From positions 65,110 through 129,109 of the forward strand of contig CASCZI010000004.1 in the NCBI GenBank assembly GCA_949156565.1: DNA of 64,000 nucleotides. Reading direction: 5' to 3'. The notes under the pieces are model-generated. The model did not search any database and was not told the DNA's origin. It saw only the letters and a program-made list of their open reading frames with translations. The position numbers and the translations under genes were made by a program. This document shows, in pieces, positions 6,393 to 58,987 of the stretch (positions within the stretch are counted from its first letter, which is position 1; the number at the start of each line of letters is the position of its first letter). Source of the DNA: an uncultured Alphaproteobacteria bacterium (GTDB lineage Bacteria; Pseudomonadota; Alphaproteobacteria; Rs-D84).

Positions 6393-8303
6393 ATGGGAAA
6401 AGTATTGGGTATTGATTTGGGAACGACGAATTCCGCCATGGCATTTATGGATGGATCTGATCCCAAAATTATTGAAAATGCCGAAGGTCAACGGACAACC
6501 CCATCGGTTGTTGCCTTTACGCCGTCGGGTGAACAATTGGTTGGGATCACCGCCAAAAACCAGGCCGTTACAAATCCGGAAAACACAATTTATGAAATTA
6601 AACGTTTGATGGGATTGCGCTATGACAGTCCGGCGATCAAAGAAATTGCCGCCCGCGTGCCCTATAAAATTGTGGCCGGCGACAATGGTGACGCATGGGT
6701 TGAAATCGAAGGCAAGAAATATGCCCCATCCCAGATTTCGGCCATGATTTTATCGAAACTGAAAAAAGATGCGGAAAATTATCTTGGCGAACCGGTCACA
6801 GATGCGGTGATTACAGTGCCGGCATACTTTAATGATTCCCAACGCCAGGCAACCAAAGACGCCGGCCGGATTGCGGGATTAAACGTGTTGCGTATTGTCA
6901 ACGAACCGACGGCGGCCGCATTGGCATATGGTCTGGAAAAAGATAAAAATGGTATTATCGCCGTGTATGATTTGGGGGGTGGGACATTTGACGTATCCAT
7001 TCTGGAAATCGTTGATGGTGTGTTCGAAGTAAAATCGACCAATGGCGATACGGCATTGGGGGGATCGGATTTTGATGCACGTATTTTGAAATACTTGATT
7101 GATGAATTCAAGGCCCAATCAGGGATCGATCTGTCGAATGATAAATTGGCCCTGCAACGGTTAAAAGAAGCGGCAGAAAAAGCCAAAATTGAATTGTCAT
7201 CAAAAATGTCGGCGGACATCAACTTGCCGTTCTTGACGGCAGATGCGACGGGTCCGAAACACTTTAACGTGACGTTAACCCGTGCAAAGCTGGAAGACCT
7301 GGTGGATGATCTGATTAAAAAGACAATTGAACCGTGCAAAAAAGCATTGGCCGACGCCAGTATTGATAAATCGCAGATTAACGAAGTTATTTTGGTCGGT
7401 GGTCAAACCCGTATGCCCAAAGTTGCCGAAACCGTCAAAGAATTTTTCGGCCGTGATCCGCACAAGGGTGTGAACCCGGACGAAGTTGTGGCCGATGGTG
7501 CCGCGATTCAAGGTGGTGTATTAAAGGGCGATGTTAAGGATGTTTTATTGTTGGATGTGACGCCGTTATCATTGGGAATTGAAACATTGGGTGGGGTGTT
7601 TACACGTCTGATTGATCGTAATACGACCATCCCGACGAAAAAGTCCCAAGTTTTCTCGACCGCCGAAGATAACCAATCGGCTGTGACCATTCGCGTGTTC
7701 CAGGGTGAACGTGACATGGCGGCCGATAACAAATTGTTGGGTCAATTTAACCTAGAAGGTATTGCCCCTGCGCCGCGCGGCATGCCCCAGATCGAAGTAT
7801 CATTTGATATCGATGCAAACGGTATTGTTCACGTGTCGGCCAAGGATAAAGGCACCGGCAAAGAACAAACTATTTCAATTAAATCCGACGGCGGTTTAAG
7901 TGAAGAAGACATTAAAAAGATGGTGGACGAAGCGGCCGCCAACGCCGAAGCAGATAAGAAAAAGCGTGCCTTGGCCGAAGCCAAGAATAACGCCGAAGCG
8001 GCGGTTTTCGGGATCGAAAAGTCATTAAAAGAACATGGCGACAAGATCAGCGAAGACGAGAAAAAGGCCATCGAAGATGCCAAGAAAGAATTGGCGGATG
8101 AATTGGCCAAGGCGGATGCAACAGCGGAAAGTCTGAAAACAAAGACAGACGCATTGACCGAAAAGGCCATGAAGTTGGGCGAAGCGGTATACAAAGCCGC
8201 CCAGGCCGAACAAGCCGCAGGCGCGGCAAGTGCCGACACCAGTGCGGGTGATGAAAAACCCGGCGACGGAACGGTTGACGCCGACTTTTCAGAAAAGAAG
8301 TAA
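6393..8303 (+). CDS. dnaK: molecular chaperone DnaK (Hsp70)
   Basis: Has the IDLGTTNS and DLGGGTFD signatures, a complete substrate-binding domain and a C-terminus [13 protein letters not shown]. No dnaJ follows. Confidence 0.9.
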
Positions 8304-8306
8304 AAA

Positions 8307-8335
8307 ATCCCGCCCAGTTGGGCGGGATTTTTTTA
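8307..8335 (+). terminator. intrinsic terminator after dnaK
   Basis: The hairpin atcccgcccagttgggcgggat is followed by a T7 run. Confidence 0.75.
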
Positions 8336-8500
8336 GTGTTCTGCGTTCAGAGTGCAGCGTTCAGATATCCCCCCCGGTGCTTTGCACAGGGGGAATGCAG
8401 CACGCTGCAAAGTTTCCCTCTGCGGAGAGGTGGCCACATAGCGGACGGGGTGGTCTTTCTTTTAGCTCTCACACCGGCATGAACTCTGCACTCTGAAAAC
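8336..8500. repeat. MITE/REP-like element with terminal inverted repeats (ttcagagtgcagNgttca)
   Basis: 8345-8367 gttcagagtgcagcgttcagata is the reverse complement of 8478-8500. Internal GC hairpins and the ggtggtcttt block are shared with repeats at 55.9 kb, 58.7 kb and 39.45 kb. Confidence 0.5.
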
Positions 8501-8625
8501 TGAAAAAAATCACGCCAGATGGCAGGATTTTTTATCTTTTACGCACAAAATATCGATCCATACAGGCACGAAAGGCCGCCAATGGATGTTGATGCCGGTT
8601 CCCTGCCCCAAGAATTATAGGCGTT

Positions 8626-8826
8626 TTGAGAGATATTGACAATACCCGGTTGACGACGGAAAATGAATCGTTACATAAAAAATTAAACGACATTTATGGC
8701 AAAATCGAACAGGCCAATTTGACCCAGTCTAAGGCCCACATCGGCATGGGCAGTCGTGGTGTTAAAAATCTAAAACAATGTATTGCCGAATTATACATGA
8801 TGTCGTTTAAACAACAGGTCAAATAA
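8626..8826 (+). CDS. small hypothetical protein (TTG start; uncertain)
   Basis: A 66-aa ORF followed by a bidirectional terminator at 8830-8851. It has no homology signal. Confidence 0.25.
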   Translation: MRDIDNTRLTTENESLHKKLNDIYGKIEQANLTQSKAHIGMGSRGVKNLKQCIAELYMMSFKQQVK

Positions 8827-8829
8827 AAA

Positions 8830-8851
8830 ACGCCCGTTGGGGCGTTTTTTA
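8830..8851. terminator. bidirectional terminator (small ORF / pfk)
   Basis: The hairpin acgcccgttggggcgt has A and T runs on both sides. Confidence 0.6.
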
Positions 8852-9928
8852 TTCTTCGGTACCCATATAGATACCCATGTTGTATGCCACCGCCAACAAC
8901 GGATCGTCGGGTGAAACATAGGCGTTTGATGTGTGCATATTGGGGATTTTGGGATCGGACGTGATTTCCCCGGCCGCAAAAAATTCAGCCAATCCAATTG
9001 TGTCACATTCCCCATCATGTACCCGTGTCATGACAAAGGTTTCATTATTTTCAATGGCGTTTAATGCCGCATCGGCCATTTTTACCGCCAAAATTCGATC
9101 AGATGCCACAGTGTCCCCGGCCCGTTGAATGTGTTCTGGGAATGCGGTCCGATTAACAACACCCGCGGCGGTTAATTTGCGGGATATAATGTCGGCGGGC
9201 CGACCGGAATGTCCACGAATGCGGATGCCTTCGGATACCAAGATAATGCCATAATCGCGGGGTTGTTCTTGGATATGATAAACCAATTCATCGATATCAA
9301 ATTTGATTTCGGGAATCAATATCACATCGGCCCCAAACGCCACCCCGGCCTTTAACGCCAGATTTCCGCAATCACGCCCCATTGTCTGGACCACGAAAAA
9401 GCGATGATGGCTGCGCGCGGTTAAGATTAATTGGTCACAGAAATTGACCACTTGCTGTACGGCGGTGTCAAATCCGATGGTACTGTCGGTTAATGGGACA
9501 TCCATATCTATCGTTTTGGGGATACACACCAACGATAAATCAGAATAAATCTCACGATTTTCCCATGCCAAAGATAAACTGCCGTTGCCACCAACCAGGA
9601 TCAGTGCATCGAGCTTTAATTCCTGCAAAGATTTCCGCACACGACGGTTAAATTCATTCAGGCGCCCCGTCGCGGCGGCGGTTTCATAATTTAATGCCCC
9701 CGCATGCCCGTTGTGCAGCCAGCTCCCCGCGAGGCGGGCCGTTTCAATCGGCAACGTATCATACGTAAATTCAACAAAACGGGCCGGTGACGCACACAGA
9801 CCATCCGTTCCGTCCAGAATTCCAATTACCGTCCAACCACGACGCATGGCGCCGGTGACAACACGCTGAATCACTGTGTTTAAACCACTGCAATCCCCGC
9901 CGGTTGTCATTATTCCAATTCGTTTCAT
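8849..9928 (-). CDS. pfk: 6-phosphofructokinase (PfkA family; ATP- or PPi-dependent not resolved)
   Basis: The N-terminus MKRIGIMTTGGDCSGLN matches the PFK GGDxxG motif. A GGNGS motif and a PFK substrate-binding region are present. Confidence 0.85.
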   Translation of the reverse strand: MKRIGIMTTGGDCSGLNTVIQRVVTGAMRRGWTVIGILDGTDGLCASPARFVEFTYDTLPIETARLAGSWLHNGHAGALNYETAAATGRLNEFNRRVRKSLQELKLDALILVGGNGSLSLAWENREIYSDLSLVCIPKTIDMDVPLTDSTIGFDTAVQQVVNFCDQLILTARSHHRFFVVQTMGRDCGNLALKAGVAFGADVILIPEIKFDIDELVYHIQEQPRDYGIILVSEGIRIRGHSGRPADIISRKLTAAGVVNRTAFPEHIQRAGDTVASDRILAVKMADAALNAIENNETFVMTRVHDGECDTIGLAEFFAAGEITSDPKIPNMHTSNAYVSPDDPLLAVAYNMGIYMGTEE

Positions 9929-14898: not shown

Positions 14899-14922
14899 AT
14901 CCCCCACTTGGGGGATTTTTTT
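14899..14922 (+). terminator. intrinsic terminator after gdhA
   Basis: The hairpin atcccccacttgggggat with a T7 run, followed by an aagttcagggtgcaag motif. Confidence 0.7.
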
Positions 14923-14956
14923 AAGTTCAGGGTGCAAGGTTTAAATCCCCCAGGGG

Positions 14957-15181
14957 TTGAAGATGTTGATTTTAACCAATGTATTGCTATTTTCACCGGG
15001 TGCCGCGGTGAATTTTGTCTTGGTAATGGGAATTGTCGCCATGGCATTGGTTGGTATGGTGTGGGATGTCGGCGTTCGCTATGTTTTTGGGCTTGCGACG
15101 GTTTTCGTCTTGGTTCAGACAATTTTGGCGTGGCGGCTGATTGCAATGCGGCACGCCCAGCAAATCGACAAAATCATTTGA
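14957..15181 (+). CDS. small two-helix membrane protein (hypothetical)
   Basis: A 74-aa, strongly hydrophobic ORF. Coding status is uncertain. Confidence 0.3.
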   Translation: MKMLILTNVLLFSPGAAVNFVLVMGIVAMALVGMVWDVGVRYVFGLATVFVLVQTILAWRLIAMRHAQQIDKII

Positions 15182-15350
15182 CATTCGGTGAACTTTGGTT
15201 CATAATGGGCACGCAAATCCCAAAGATTGCCATTTAAATCATCCCAGTGTGCGGTATGCACATGGAACATCATCCGGCGAGTGTTCGCCCATGATGGCGG
15301 TTTTTATATTGGTTTCGGCGGGCCCGATTTAATTGTCAAAGGAGTATAAA

Positions 15351-15818: not shown

Positions 15819-15863
15819 GGGTTTGAAAACGCCCGGGGATATATACCGGGCGTTCAGATATCA

Positions 15864-16343
15864 ATGGTCACAATGACAGAAAACCGAAAAATTTTGGTTG
15901 GGAAAATCGTCGCCCCCCAGGGTATTCGCGGGGATGTGCGTGTTCAAACGTACACGGCATCACCAATGGATTTGAAACAGCTTAAAATTCAAAGTTCAAA
16001 GTTCGGCGAAGATGATTTTCATTTTATCCGGCGCCTTAACCCGACGTCGGACGTGATTGTGGCGCATATTGCGGGATATGACGATCGTACGGCGGCGGAA
16101 TCGTTGCGCGGTGTGGAATTGGTTATTGATCGCGATGCCCTGCCTGATGCGGGTCCGGGTGAATATTATCAGGCGGATCTGATCGGGTTTTCTGTGTGGC
16201 GGGCCGGCCGTGACATGGGGCGGATTATCGGTTTTCAGAATTTTGGTGCCGGTGATATTATGGAATTGGATAACGGCGAAATGATTTCTTTTATGGGCGC
16301 CGATGTTGATATGGTTCAAAAAATAATTCGGGTGGATGAATGA
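15864..16343 (+). CDS. rimM: 16S rRNA processing protein RimM
   Basis: Contains ILVGKIVAPQGIRGDVRV and a PRC-barrel C-terminal region. Confidence 0.85.
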   Translation: MVTMTENRKILVGKIVAPQGIRGDVRVQTYTASPMDLKQLKIQSSKFGEDDFHFIRRLNPTSDVIVAHIAGYDDRTAAESLRGVELVIDRDALPDAGPGEYYQADLIGFSVWRAGRDMGRIIGFQNFGAGDIMELDNGEMISFMGADVDMVQKIIRVDE

Positions 16344-18765: not shown

Positions 18766-18792
18766 ACCGCCCATTCGGGCGGATTTTTTTTA
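18766..18792 (+). terminator. intrinsic terminator after rplS
   Basis: The hairpin ccgcccattcgggcgg with a T9 run, followed by acagtgttcagagttcagata. Confidence 0.75.
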
Positions 18793-19005
18793 CAGTGTTC
18801 AGAGTTCAGATAACAGAGATTAAGGTCGGTACCCGTTCTGCGTTCCTGTTCTTTGTTCCTCATTTCCTCACAAAAAACTATGTCTATGGGTTTTGGGACG
18901 TGATCGCCGTCGTGGGGGGGGCGTGTGCGGGGTGTGCGACACATGGTATCGGATGGAATAAGATACAGTTTGACTTATGTTTTGGGGATCTGTACAATAT
19001 TGGGC

Positions 19006-32858: not shown

Positions 32859-32914
32859 GGAATCCCATACATATCGCCCCCCCCTTGTGGAACGGTGACT
32901 TTGAACGCAAAAAA

Positions 32915-39130: not shown

Positions 39131-39150
39131 AGAATCCATCCAGATATAAA

Positions 39151-39180
39151 AAATGGCGGAGCGTACAGGACTGGACTCCC
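39151..39180 (-). other. degenerate tRNA-Ser 3'-end remnant (att-like)
   Basis: The minus strand reads gagtccagtcctgtacgctccgcca, compared with the intact tRNA-Ser 3' end gagtcctatacgctccgcca. Confidence 0.4.
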
Positions 39181-40319: not shown

Positions 40320-40409
40320 AATCGTTATTCGGAGCGTTGCCAGAGTGGTAATGGAGCGGATTGCTAATCCGTCATGGGGTTAAACTCATGCATAGGTTCG
40401 AGTCCTATA
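40320..40409 (+). tRNA. tRNA-Ser (anticodon GCT), type II with a long variable arm
   Basis: Acceptor GGAGCGT/ACGCTCC, anticodon loop TTGCTAA, T-loop TTCGAGT and an encoded CCA. Confidence 0.9.
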
Positions 40410-40417
40410 CGCTCCGC

Positions 40418-40441
40418 CAGATTTTAAAAAGCCCTTGTTTG
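40418..40441. terminator. bidirectional terminator after tRNA-Ser
   Basis: The sequence aaaagcccttgtttgggcttttttat. Confidence 0.6.
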
Positions 40442-42723: not shown

Positions 42724-42766
42724 GCAGATTAGCAATCTGCTGCATTACCACTCTGCCAACGCTCCG
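42724..42766 (-). other. 5' half of a diverged tRNA-Ser(GCU)-like gene (acceptor 5' strand, D-arm, anticodon arm)
   Basis: The minus strand reads CGGAGCGTTGGCAGAGTGGTAATGCAGCAGATTGCTAATCTGC then T6CT5. It has compensatory stem changes relative to the intact tRNA (cggat/atccg versus cagat/atctg). Confidence 0.5.
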
Positions 42767-46455: not shown

Positions 46456-46591
46456 TCGTTCCCGCCGTTTGGCGGGATTATTTTAATCCAATCGATATAT
46501 GGTGTCACCCACGCGAATGTAATTTGCGCGGGGCTATATCATCATTCAGAATTCAGATATCAGAAATTCATTTGACTTATTATAGGGTTTT

Positions 46592-49235: not shown

Positions 49236-49266
49236 CGGGCATTTTATAATAATGGCGGAGACGGAG
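49236..49266 (-). repeat. direct-repeat copy of the tRNA-Ser(CGA) 3' end plus 13 nt of flank (att-like)
   Basis: The 33 nt cattttataataatggcggagacggagggattt are identical at 49234-49266 and 49396-49428. A third degenerate copy lies at 49374-49395. Confidence 0.7.
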
Positions 49267-49418
49267 GGATTTCGCTCAGCACTATTTCATGGTGCCTGCG
49301 CGGCAGTCCTAACGGCTTGACTATGCTTCGCTTGTCTCGCCTACTCCTCGTGAACCCCGGGGTTCTGCATCCCCCACCACATTATTATAAAATATACCGC
49401 TGGCACATTTTATAATAA

Positions 49419-49507
49419 TGGCGGAGACGGAGGGATTTGAACCCCCGATACGGTTGCCCGTATACACGATTTCGAGTCGCGCGCATTCAACCACTCTGCC
49501 ACGTCTC
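49419..49507 (-). tRNA. tRNA-Ser (anticodon CGA), type II
   Basis: The reverse complement reads GGAGACGTGGCAGAGTGGTTGAATGC...CTCGAAA...GGTTCAAATCCCTCCGTCTCCGCCA, with a long variable arm and an encoded CCA. Confidence 0.9.
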
Positions 49508-49677
49508 CACGGATGGGCATTATACAGGTTTTGTTTCTTTTTGCAAGGGGTTTGTATTTTAATTGATTTTGATGCCAAATTATGCTATAATATCATTAAA
49601 ATTCATGACGGCCCATCGGGCCGTCTTTTTTCATGACCACCCCACCCGGGGTGTTTTTTTATCAAAGGAATACAACC

Positions 49678-55894: not shown

Positions 55895-56130
55895 ACGAAC
55901 AGGTTCACCGCCCCCGTTGGAATCTTTGAAAAAAGACCACCCCGACCCCGGGCCCCGCGAAAATTGTTAAATTTCCATAGGTGGGTTCTGGCGGGGGAAC
56001 TTTTCTTTGTTCTTTGCGTGGGTGGATTCCAGGATGGGGAACTTATATCCAGGTTGGTTCGGCCCAGGTTCACCGCCCCCAGAGGGGTGCCACGAAGTGG
56101 CGGGGTGGTCTTTTGTCCGAACTCTGAACA
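55895..56130. repeat. cluster of dispersed intergenic repeats (MITE/REP-like)
   Basis: Internal direct repeat aggttcaccgccccc at 55901 and 56066. Blocks aaaaaagaccacccc, ttccataggtgggttctggcgggggaactt and ggtggtcttttgtccgaactctgaacact are shared with 58.63-58.96 kb and 8.34-8.50 kb. Confidence 0.5.
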
Positions 56131-56132
56131 CT

Positions 56133-58629: not shown

Positions 58630-58960
58630 TGGCCCCTACCACCAAAACACAATCTGGAATTGAAATATTCCATGGACGGGTTCTGGCGGATGAACTTAAA
58701 CTTAGCGTAGCACGAAGACAAGTTCTCCTCCCTCGAGGGGAGTACCCCGAAGGGGGGGGAGGTGGTCTTTACCTGAACTCTGCACGCTGTATTGCCGACA
58801 CGCCGGGCACCCATATGTGATCTTTTAAAAAAGACCACCCCGGGCTTCGCCCACCCCTCCACCGGAGGGGAACTTTAGATCGGTGCATAGGTTCTCCTCC
58901 CTCGAGGGGGGGGGACCCCAAAGGGGGGAGGCGGTCTTTTATCTGCACTCTAAACACTGT
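58630..58960. repeat. tandem/inverted cluster of dispersed intergenic repeats
   Basis: Direct repeats gttctcctccctcgagggg at 58721 and 58890. The block ccccRaaggggggaggYggtcttt-aYctgMactctRMacRctg occurs twice, with the inverted aaaaaagaccaccccggg at 58827 and ttccatggacgggttctggcggatgaactt at 58668. Confidence 0.5.
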
Positions 58961-58961
58961 A

Positions 58962-58987
58962 AAAAAAAATCCCGCCAAATGGCGGAA
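58962..58987 (-). terminator. intrinsic terminator of rne
   Basis: On the minus strand the hairpin ccgccatttggcgg is followed by a T-rich run, then acagtgtttagagtgcagat. Confidence 0.6.

Follow-up and report, generated by a model that had tools for sequence, protein, structure and literature searches.

The intervening sequences (IVSs) of bacterial 23S rRNA, known with an S23p open reading frame (ORF) from Coxiella burnetii, Leptospira and Xanthomonas, combine inverted flanks, a long stem and an optional ORF. The Coxiella IVS is a selfish element in which three to four tandem GACAGAT units, variable in number between strains, precede the S23p ORF, and RNase III cuts at the first of these repeats (PMC4990558). 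Here we describe a comparable repeat in 64,000 nucleotides of DNA from an uncultured alphaproteobacterium (assembly GCA_949156565.1, contig CASCZI010000004.1, positions 65,110 to 129,109; 44.8% GC), a stretch that we refer to as the window. The repeat is a block of tandem heptamers that lies just 3′ of several intrinsic terminators. At one locus, the dnaK-pfk spacer, it resembles the 23S IVS in having inverted flanks and a long stem, and the metagenomic and plasmid cassettes described below share the gene family of the IVS between heptamer arms. The window copies differ from the IVS in that they lie outside rRNA, contain no ORF, mostly have one arm and follow mRNA terminators; there is no rRNA in the window, and the copies sit behind the terminators of protein genes. 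On balance, we think that the blocks are probably arms of selfish, IVS-like elements that were added behind terminators and stand outside the termination signal. Heptamer-repeat/IVS-type elements behind terminators are a new form of known kinds of element, not a new terminator signal.

Tandem heptanucleotides are the second relevant kind of element, and the short tandemly repeated repetitive (STRR) sequences of heterocystous cyanobacteria are reportedly among them. Repeats of the STRR type resemble the window arrays as intergenic, imperfect 7-nt arrays with many copies and a patchy phylogenetic spread, but have another unit, and the window arrays are short (two to five units) and locked 3′ of T-tracts. 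Among long simple-sequence repeats, heptanucleotides are reported to be the commonest type in many prokaryotic genomes, and slippage has been proposed as their origin (Mrazek 2007, as cited in PMC4679880; PMC4692102). They are strongly enriched in the intergenic DNA of Xanthomonas and Nostoc, their role is called unknown (PMC4692102; PMC4679880), and Xanthomonas contains 70-75 convergent pairs of them (PMC4692102). Named examples include GGGAATC in Xanthomonas, GGGGAYT in Nostoc and TAACTGA in Beggiatoaceae, Cyanobacteria and Bacteroidetes (PMC4692102; PMC4679880). Unlike the window arrays, TAACTGA repeats are found just upstream of start codons. The window arrays are heptanucleotide tandem repeats in the full sense, with head-to-tail 7-nt units and many intergenic copies in the genome and its relatives. 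S23p or four-helix-bundle genes are not mentioned in PMC4692102 or PMC4679880, no publication linking heptamer arrays to four-helix-bundle genes was found in open-access text, and strings of heptamer dimers gave no literature match.

Each block is a tandem array of two to five in-register heptamers, GT(T/G)CAG(A/T), that reads in the sense of the upstream gene. GTTCAGA occurs 14 times in the window, compared with 3.11 ± 1.75 times in shuffled sequence (0 of 100 shuffles reach 14), and TTCAGATA occurs six times, compared with 1.18 expected. In four of the six strict two-unit arrays, at most 12 nt separate the start of the array from the end of the T-tract of a terminator with a perfect stem (binomial P = 1e-8 with the entire window as background and P = 2.5e-5 with its ~9 kb of non-coding DNA), and a fifth lies behind a hairpin with one mismatch and a T7 tract. 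The association between terminators and arrays in the window is real, neither chance nor artefact. Only a minority of the window's strong terminators (about five to seven) bear an array, and most have none. The window contains eight to nine intergenic arrays in 64 kb (~1 per 8 kb), with an inventory of one complete two-armed element and about six single arms.

The two-armed element occupies the dnaK-pfk spacer. Its left arm (8335..8367, plus strand; AGT GTTCTGC GTTCAGA GTGCAGC GTTCAGA TA) stands directly after the dnaK terminator hairpin (8302-8333, plus strand; T7 at 8328-8334) and has its counterpart 110 nt downstream in the right arm, an inverted array (8480..8502, minus strand; CAG TTTTCAGA GTGCAGA GTTCA). 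The GC-rich core between the arms (8368..8479) contains AAAGACCACCCCG, in minus-strand reading, and internal hairpins. An orphan terminator-like hairpin with one mismatch and A/T tracts (8503..8536, minus strand; ATCCTGCCATCTGGCGTGAT) closes the element; it follows no gene, and pfk has its own terminator at 8821-8857. The predicted fold of the region 8296-8545 pairs the two arrays (minimum free energy -105.5 kcal/mol, z = -6.91), and the arm duplex has a value of -31 kcal/mol (z = -5.5). No partner arm above shuffled background was found for any other window array, and inverted pairing flanks are absent for the six other window copies.

Single arms follow genes on both strands. The rplS array (18792..18817, plus strand; ACAGT GTTCAGA GTTCAGA TAACAGA) comes directly after the T8 (18784-18791) of the rplS terminator (18767-18791, plus strand), and the degenerate gdhA array (14925..14945, plus strand; GTTCAGG GTGCAAG GTTTAAA) is separated by AA from the T7 (14916-14922) of the gdhA terminator (14900-14922, plus strand). 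On the minus strand, AGT GTTCAGA GTTCGGA (56116..56132) directly follows the terminator T7 of the 56161-57405 gene, and ACAGT GTTTAGA GTGCAGA TAAAAGA (58935..58960) directly follows the T9 of the rne terminator (58971-58986). The sequences at dnaK, rplS and gdhA and the minus-strand copies after the 56161 gene and rne read as the earlier note described them, and its gene names (dnaK, rplS, rpsP, gdhA, peroxiredoxin and rne) are correct. The peroxiredoxin array, which it placed directly after a terminator (46544..46570, plus strand; ATTCAGA x3.7, ending in CAGATATCAGA; period 7 in Tandem Repeats Finder, TRF), turned out to be separated from the T-tract by ~66 nt and to follow a further, weak hairpin. 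Three minus-strand copies were absent from its list: the right dnaK-pfk arm (8480-8502), a second 58-kb array (58785-58772; GTGCAGA GTTCAGG) that lies behind a weak hairpin away from any gene end, and a weak one (32906-32893) belonging to the decayed rpoD array (32893..32908; GC GTTCAAA GTCACCG after a terminator T8). Within the rimM coding region, 15984-16004 reads AAAGTTC x3, a unit of the same family (GTTCAAA; TRF score 35).

A separate module of GC-rich palindromic repeats accompanies several arrays. One copy (55929..56114, minus strand; AAAAGACCACCCCG ... CGGGGTGGTCTTTTTT) abuts the 56116-56132 array, another is found at 58827..58940 (minus strand; AAAAGACCGCC ... GGGGTGGTCTTTTTT) and a second 58-kb copy (58722-58770, minus strand) is headed by the 58772-58785 array. 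Palindromes of the form AAAGACCACCCCG ... CGGGGTGGTCTTTTTT thus stand behind the 56-kb and 58-kb arrays, and they occur in either orientation in other members of the clade. The family as a whole, AAAGACC(A/G)CC..CCCC ... GGGGTGGTCTTTTTT, also includes 8380-8470 in the dnaK-pfk core; it appears as ACCACTACCCCGCC..CACCCCTTCGCCAGCGAAGGGG in Hs463_bin75 loci and is reversed in locus L061. It has no Rfam match, and its closing helix and T-run look terminator-like.

Comparison with sister species places the origin of the blocks within the window's lineage. Syntenic regions of relatives (L162, L164, L166 and L168-L171) were obtained through L19 homologues with 88-97% identity, the close ones coming from organisms labelled Alphaproteobacteria or Rickettsiales bacterium. 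No block follows rplS, gdhA or dnaK in any of these regions, and ~60 kb of syntenic sister DNA contains zero arrays. The gdhA hairpin TCCCCCAYTTGGGGGA and its T7 are identical in the window, L168 and L164, and the gdhA-rpsP spacer of the window has ~245 extra bases, with the block first, ahead of the conserved rpsP promoter and leader (alignment A2). At rplS, the window hairpin (ACCGCC...GGCGG) has a counterpart of similar sequence in L166, and the window has ~200 extra bases past its T-tract (alignment A1). Judging from these alignments, the block is a lineage-specific addition beside terminators that at two sites (gdhA and rplS) pre-existed. Since sister species have the same terminators without the block, termination does not need it. 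The block also generally brings no terminator with it: the hairpin at gdhA is ancestral, the one at rplS is similar to its L166 counterpart, and extra DNA is found only after the T-tracts. The window's dnaK hairpin is unlike that of relatives and, together with the orphan hairpins at element ends (8510-8528 and L004), suggests that some copies may carry a hairpin along.

These comparisons bear on both proposals of the earlier note. For a terminator-bearing mobile repeat, the lineage-specific, dispersed DNA is borne out, but as a rule the terminator is not carried along. A conserved post-terminator signal, such as an RNase site or a small-RNA 3′ module, does not agree with the absence of the block at orthologous terminators and at most strong window terminators, or with the lack of an Rfam match. 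The rpsP-rimM copy contains GTTCAGA 3′ of a hairpin as reported (15852..15858, plus strand), but this single unit is conserved in sister species as GCGTTCAG(T/A)A and probably lies outside the array family for that reason.

The same region contains three further observations. A small hydrophobic ORF (14956-15237) lies in the window-specific gdhA-rpsP DNA; it belongs to no Pfam family, and sister species do not have it. Unlike the spacer around them, the rpsP promoter (TTGACA-17-CATAAT) and the ~120-nt leader behind it (15170-15332) show strong conservation with L168 and L164; the leader has no Rfam match and could be an S16-operon leader. Three independent sister-species assemblies (L168, L169 and L170) all end ~80 nt past rplS, which hints at a repeat there.

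We scanned related Alphaproteobacteria, with one genome per species, for the pattern TTTT-N1-4-AGTKTTYAGAGTKCRGA. The succession of hairpin, T-tract and three to five heptamers also occurs in UBA3635, RUG13827, RUG13375, Hs463_bin75, Mgla_MAG_4-bin_5, SIG46 and CAXHMP, all uncultured Alphaproteobacteria with 41-54% GC. The window and the related loci together provide 33 non-redundant arrays behind tracts of T5 or longer, whose 105 units give the matrix G94/T11, T105, T71/G31/A3, C102, A102, G92, A78/T22. Most arrays have AGT or CAGT as their leader, which corresponds to the end of a unit. Hairpins preceding the arrays vary widely between copies in other species and the heptamers do not.

Partner arms that exceed the shuffled background are present for ~7 of 31 arrays in the clade. 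An orthologous spacer of UBA3635 and RUG13375 is laid out as gene, terminator, forward array, ~180-nt core, inverted array, hairpin, promoter and gene. The core between the inverted arms has opposite orientations in these two genomes, which suggests that inverted arms recombine.

Outside the clade, a metagenome scan for GTTCAGAGTGCAGAGTTCA that imposed no terminator condition returned at least 120 stretches with a GC content of 35-71%. Only ~10 among the matches listed have a layout like the window's; in the remaining listed matches, the array directly follows a stop codon or lies upstream of a gene in divergent orientation. An inverted partner is found downstream in ~50 of the 120 listed matches, across a spacer of 5-70 nt with modes near 34, 47 and 57 nt, and upstream in only 2 of the 120. 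With this convergent symmetry, a gene approaching from either side meets a first arm that reads GTKCAGA in its own sense, which explains the constant orientation of the arrays. Metagenome copies often end in CAGAT(A), as the window copies do. A phage origin of the arrays was rejected, as viral contigs contain zero occurrences of the 19-mer GTTCAGAGTGCAGAGTTCA. Long (GGTTCAG/GGTTTAG)n metagenome contigs (L050, L096, L118, L129 and L161) resemble eukaryotic telomere-type repeats and match the 19-mer through chance similarity only; four of them (L050, L096, L129 and L161) were set aside as something different.

Clustering of the ORFs near these arrays (2101 ORFs from ~120 loci) revealed two clusters of a ~120-residue protein and no other recurrent gene family. 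The protein matches the 23S rRNA intervening sequence protein (Pfam accession PF05635, 1e-28) and the four helix bundle protein (NCBIfam accession TIGR02436). In L111/L120, L144, L149, L084 and L105, the PF05635 gene is enclosed exactly by a GTKCAGA-type array on one side and the reverse complement of that array on the other. Three further loci (L148, L101 and L039, the last from an alphaproteobacterium of the window's clade) have PF05635 genes flanked by other heptamers (GTTAGTG, CAACTAA), at sites unrelated to the scan's query match.

The same arrangement is seen in an independent sample, 12 plasmid-borne four-helix-bundle genes from Bacteroidota, Bacillota, Spirochaetota, Cyanobacteriota and Chloroflexota. 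Flanking repeats are exact period-7 tandems for 9 of the 12 genes and imperfect for the other 3, and in all nine exact cases the upstream arm is complementary to the downstream one over 8-20 nt. The units include AGTGATT in Bernardetia, CAATTCG with TAATTCG in Nostoc, TTTTAGA in Gloeocapsa, CCAGTGA in Euhalothece and GGAGAGC/GGAAAGT in Treponema. We thus have convergent heptamer flanks around TIGR02436/PF05635 genes in at least five phyla (plasmid loci L175-L186, and L039, L101, L148, L111, L144, L149 and L187-L202). The host genes on either side of a cassette are co-directional, the cassette gene is in sense with them, and the setting is often a defence operon; contexts include hsdS/gene/hsdR, helicase/gene/methylase, DUF1156/gene/HEPN and RND adaptor/gene/pump.

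Allelic comparisons connect these gene cassettes to ORF-less elements. L144 and L074/L069 are 98.7-100% identical in both flanks, and their only difference is 428 extra bp in L144, made up of the gene with inner heptamers before it and inner inverted heptamers after it; L074 has the outer arms only, joined head to head. An abundant gut alphaproteobacterium provides a second case, a filled site (hydrolase-[GTKCAGA arms + gene]-ruvB) in 10 of 10 strains read, and its sister species (RuvB 95% identical) an empty one, with 3 nt separating these two genes. On contig L111 of assembly OJAR01, the array AGAGTGCAACGTTCAGAGTGCAGAGTTCAGATA stands at the head of a gene cassette, and on contig L117 AGAGTGCAACGTTCAGAGTGCAGAGTTCAGATA follows a terminator T-tract and precedes an ORF-less 150-nt core, an inverted array and a convergent terminator. 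At the level of sequence, complete members of the block family thus have convergent arms around a core or a four-helix-bundle (S23p/Avd-like) gene. Filled, ORF-less and empty sites are evidently alternative states, with cassettes coming and going between close relatives.

The arrays were added immediately 3′ of T-tracts, and the single copies are followed by other repeat modules. If the blocks are indeed arms of selfish elements, the arrays would be selfish or near-neutral and be tolerated behind terminators, where little transcription arrives and their position is harmless. Arm pairs that are transcribed could form a long stem and be cut by RNase III, by analogy with the intervening sequences of rRNA, and the single arms of the window would be inert half-elements or relics. 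Spread may have occurred by targeted insertion beside a hairpin and T-tract (or at transcript 3′ ends), or by gene conversion between similar terminators. Gene conversion is favoured by the similar form, ATCCCGCC...GGCGGGAT, of the block-bearing hairpins in the window and by L013 and L026, which contain near-identical stretches of hairpin plus array behind other genes.

Several observations weigh against this account. Neither a four-helix-bundle gene nor a remnant of one is present in the 64-kb window, its spacers included. Most post-terminator arrays have no partner arm (one is found at a single window locus and for the ~7 of 31 clade arrays), and the term half-element is thus one that we infer. 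No recurrent transposase lies within 2.5 kb of the ~120 loci, and no target-site duplication is found at their junctions. The dnaK and rplS blocks do not differ between the same-species assemblies available, and so no strain polymorphism, ongoing mobility or copy-number change is seen. Finally, the precision of the junction (0-5 nt past the T-tract, with the constant AGT/CAGT leader) goes beyond what tolerance alone explains.

Alternatively, terminator and array together may form the repeated unit, travelling whole or through hairpin-primed gene conversion and supplying or replacing terminators. The constant junction and the lack of target-site duplications agree with such a unit, as do the block-bearing hairpins of the window, which are alike in sequence (ATCCCGCC(C)...GGCGGGAT at dnaK, 56139 and 58972; ATCCTGCC at 8510) and all end in GGAT followed by T7-9. 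Further support comes from the orphan hairpins that close elements at 8510-8528 and in L004, from the difference between the dnaK hairpin and those of relatives and from L013 and L026, where hairpin-plus-array stretches with 83-89% identity stand behind other genes. However, at gdhA and rplS an ancestral and an L166-like hairpin are followed by new DNA only past their T-tracts, the hairpins before arrays in UBA3635 and Hs463_bin75 are highly diverse, and outside the clade the same arrays occur without any terminator. We regard a repeated unit of terminator plus array as an unlikely explanation.

A functional post-terminator cis-element, bound by a factor that backs up termination or that blocks or processes read-through, seems less likely still. 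Tandem 7-bp operators do exist, for example those of the omega repressor of pSM19035. A functional element would also account for the strict position and orientation of the arrays relative to the T-tract, for the conservation of the heptamer across species of 41-54% GC while hairpins vary, and for the fact that most copies are single arms unable to form a stem. Yet sister species whose L19 is 88-97% identical lack the array at the same terminators, which leads us to disfavour a functional role for single arrays, and only about five to seven strong window terminators bear one. Moreover, unrelated phyla have these heptamers in other settings, upstream of genes, behind stop codons and on the two sides of four-helix-bundle genes, and Rfam contains no match.

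Local polymerase slippage beside the T-tract, which would produce simple-sequence repeats with neither common origin nor function, gains plausibility from the published abundance of heptanucleotide repeats and the slippage proposal made for them (Mrazek 2007, as cited in PMC4679880; PMC4692102). It is nonetheless very improbable here. The same imperfect mix of units (GTTCAGA/GTGCAGA), the AGT leader and the CAGATA end recur at many loci in many taxa, the arrays are short and without polymorphism between assemblies, and the strict convergent pairing (~50 partners downstream versus 2 upstream, among the matches listed) is not expected from slippage. A DNA uptake sequence of the kind that Neisseria or Pasteurellaceae have at terminators is scarcely credible: although the motif is over-represented, beside terminators and common to related species, its density is only ~1 per 8 kb, it lies outside the stem with its strand fixed by the upstream gene, and it is absent in sister species and found in many phyla around one gene family.

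Other described kinds of element fit less well than IVSs and heptanucleotide repeats. Repetitive extragenic palindromic (REP) sequences and bacterial interspersed mosaic elements (BIMEs), Rhizobium-specific intergenic mosaic elements (RIMEs) and Correia elements are likewise small, dispersed extragenic hairpin mosaics that are often found at 3′ ends, and the mosaic of array and GC-rich palindromes is the REP-like feature of the window. In contrast to REP/BIME, however, the window arrays have no GTAG-type head, no REP-associated tyrosine transposase (RAYT) or other transposase nearby and no target-site duplication, and their arms are tandem heptamers; we rejected this assignment because the array is not palindromic and no RAYT-like gene cluster exists among the neighbours. 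A MITE, a miniature transposable element with inverted repeats, was also rejected; some copies have inverted arms, yet neither a target-site duplication nor a recurrent transposase accompanies them (2.5 kb, ~120 loci). Class C group II introns are said to insert just 3′ of intrinsic terminators, and share with the window elements a site immediately 3′ of hairpin and T-tract and a sense orientation. The window elements differ from them in being 20-190 nt long, with no intron RNA domains and no reverse transcriptase, and no Rfam hit to such an intron was obtained at gathering or E-value thresholds. Searches of the repeat-rich spacers with Rfam, at the gathering threshold and at permissive E-values, returned only tRNAs and weak terminator-driven matches.

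Other sequence signals were considered as well. Some metagenomic copies contain TTCAGA-17 nt-TATAGT, but the window copies have no correctly spaced -10 box, and a promoter reading was rejected. The alphaproteobacterial LexA box is GTTC-N7-GTTC, and the array spacing of 7 or 14, rather than 11, does not match it. Nor does the sequence fit a CcrM site, a T-loop or an integron core site.

Two tRNA regions of the window show repeats of another kind. The tRNA-Ser(GCT) region (39147-39175, 40331-40419, 42727-42766) has flanking inverted partial copies of the tRNA 3′ end (86%) and 5′ half (93%), which suggest that scars of integration, since rearranged, surround 3.6 kb of small ORFs. Two perfect direct copies of a 33-nt sequence (49240-49272 and 49406-49438) form an att-like duplication; they are only 166 nt apart, and the second copy overlaps the 3′ end of tRNA-Ser(CGA) (49419-49508, minus strand).

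For the annotation of this genome, the blocks are to be treated as lineage-specific repeat DNA and not as terminator extensions, small-RNA genes or regulatory sites. The general link between arrays and four-helix-bundle genes is a more interesting result than the terminator block and merits a systematic survey. Convergent heptamer flanks around genes of the very common TIGR02436/PF05635 family are a consistent association, with no description found in the literature searched, that spans Alphaproteobacteria, Bacteroidota, Cyanobacteriota, Spirochaetota, Chloroflexota and Bacillota and includes ORF-less heptamer palindromes allelic to the cassettes.

More tentatively, and at less than even confidence, we propose that heptamer arrays and the four-helix-bundle gene constitute one ubiquitous and unrecognised class of selfish cassette, intervening sequences outside rRNA. 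Such cassettes would insert at the 3′ ends of genes and transcription units, in operons, in defence loci and behind terminators, and their decay would leave first heptamer palindromes that lack the ORF and later single arms; the window blocks would be relics of this process. The exact junction with the T-tract would then reflect targeting of transcript 3′ ends. If this is true, the cassettes would explain much of the excess of heptanucleotide repeats in bacteria, including those of the STRR type. The four-helix-bundle family would gain a role in binding or propagating its own heptamer arms, and because Avd is a reverse-transcriptase cofactor in diversity-generating retroelements, propagation could perhaps proceed through an RNA or reverse-transcription step. 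The association thus makes two old questions testable: what purpose bacterial heptanucleotide repeats serve, and what S23p-like proteins do.

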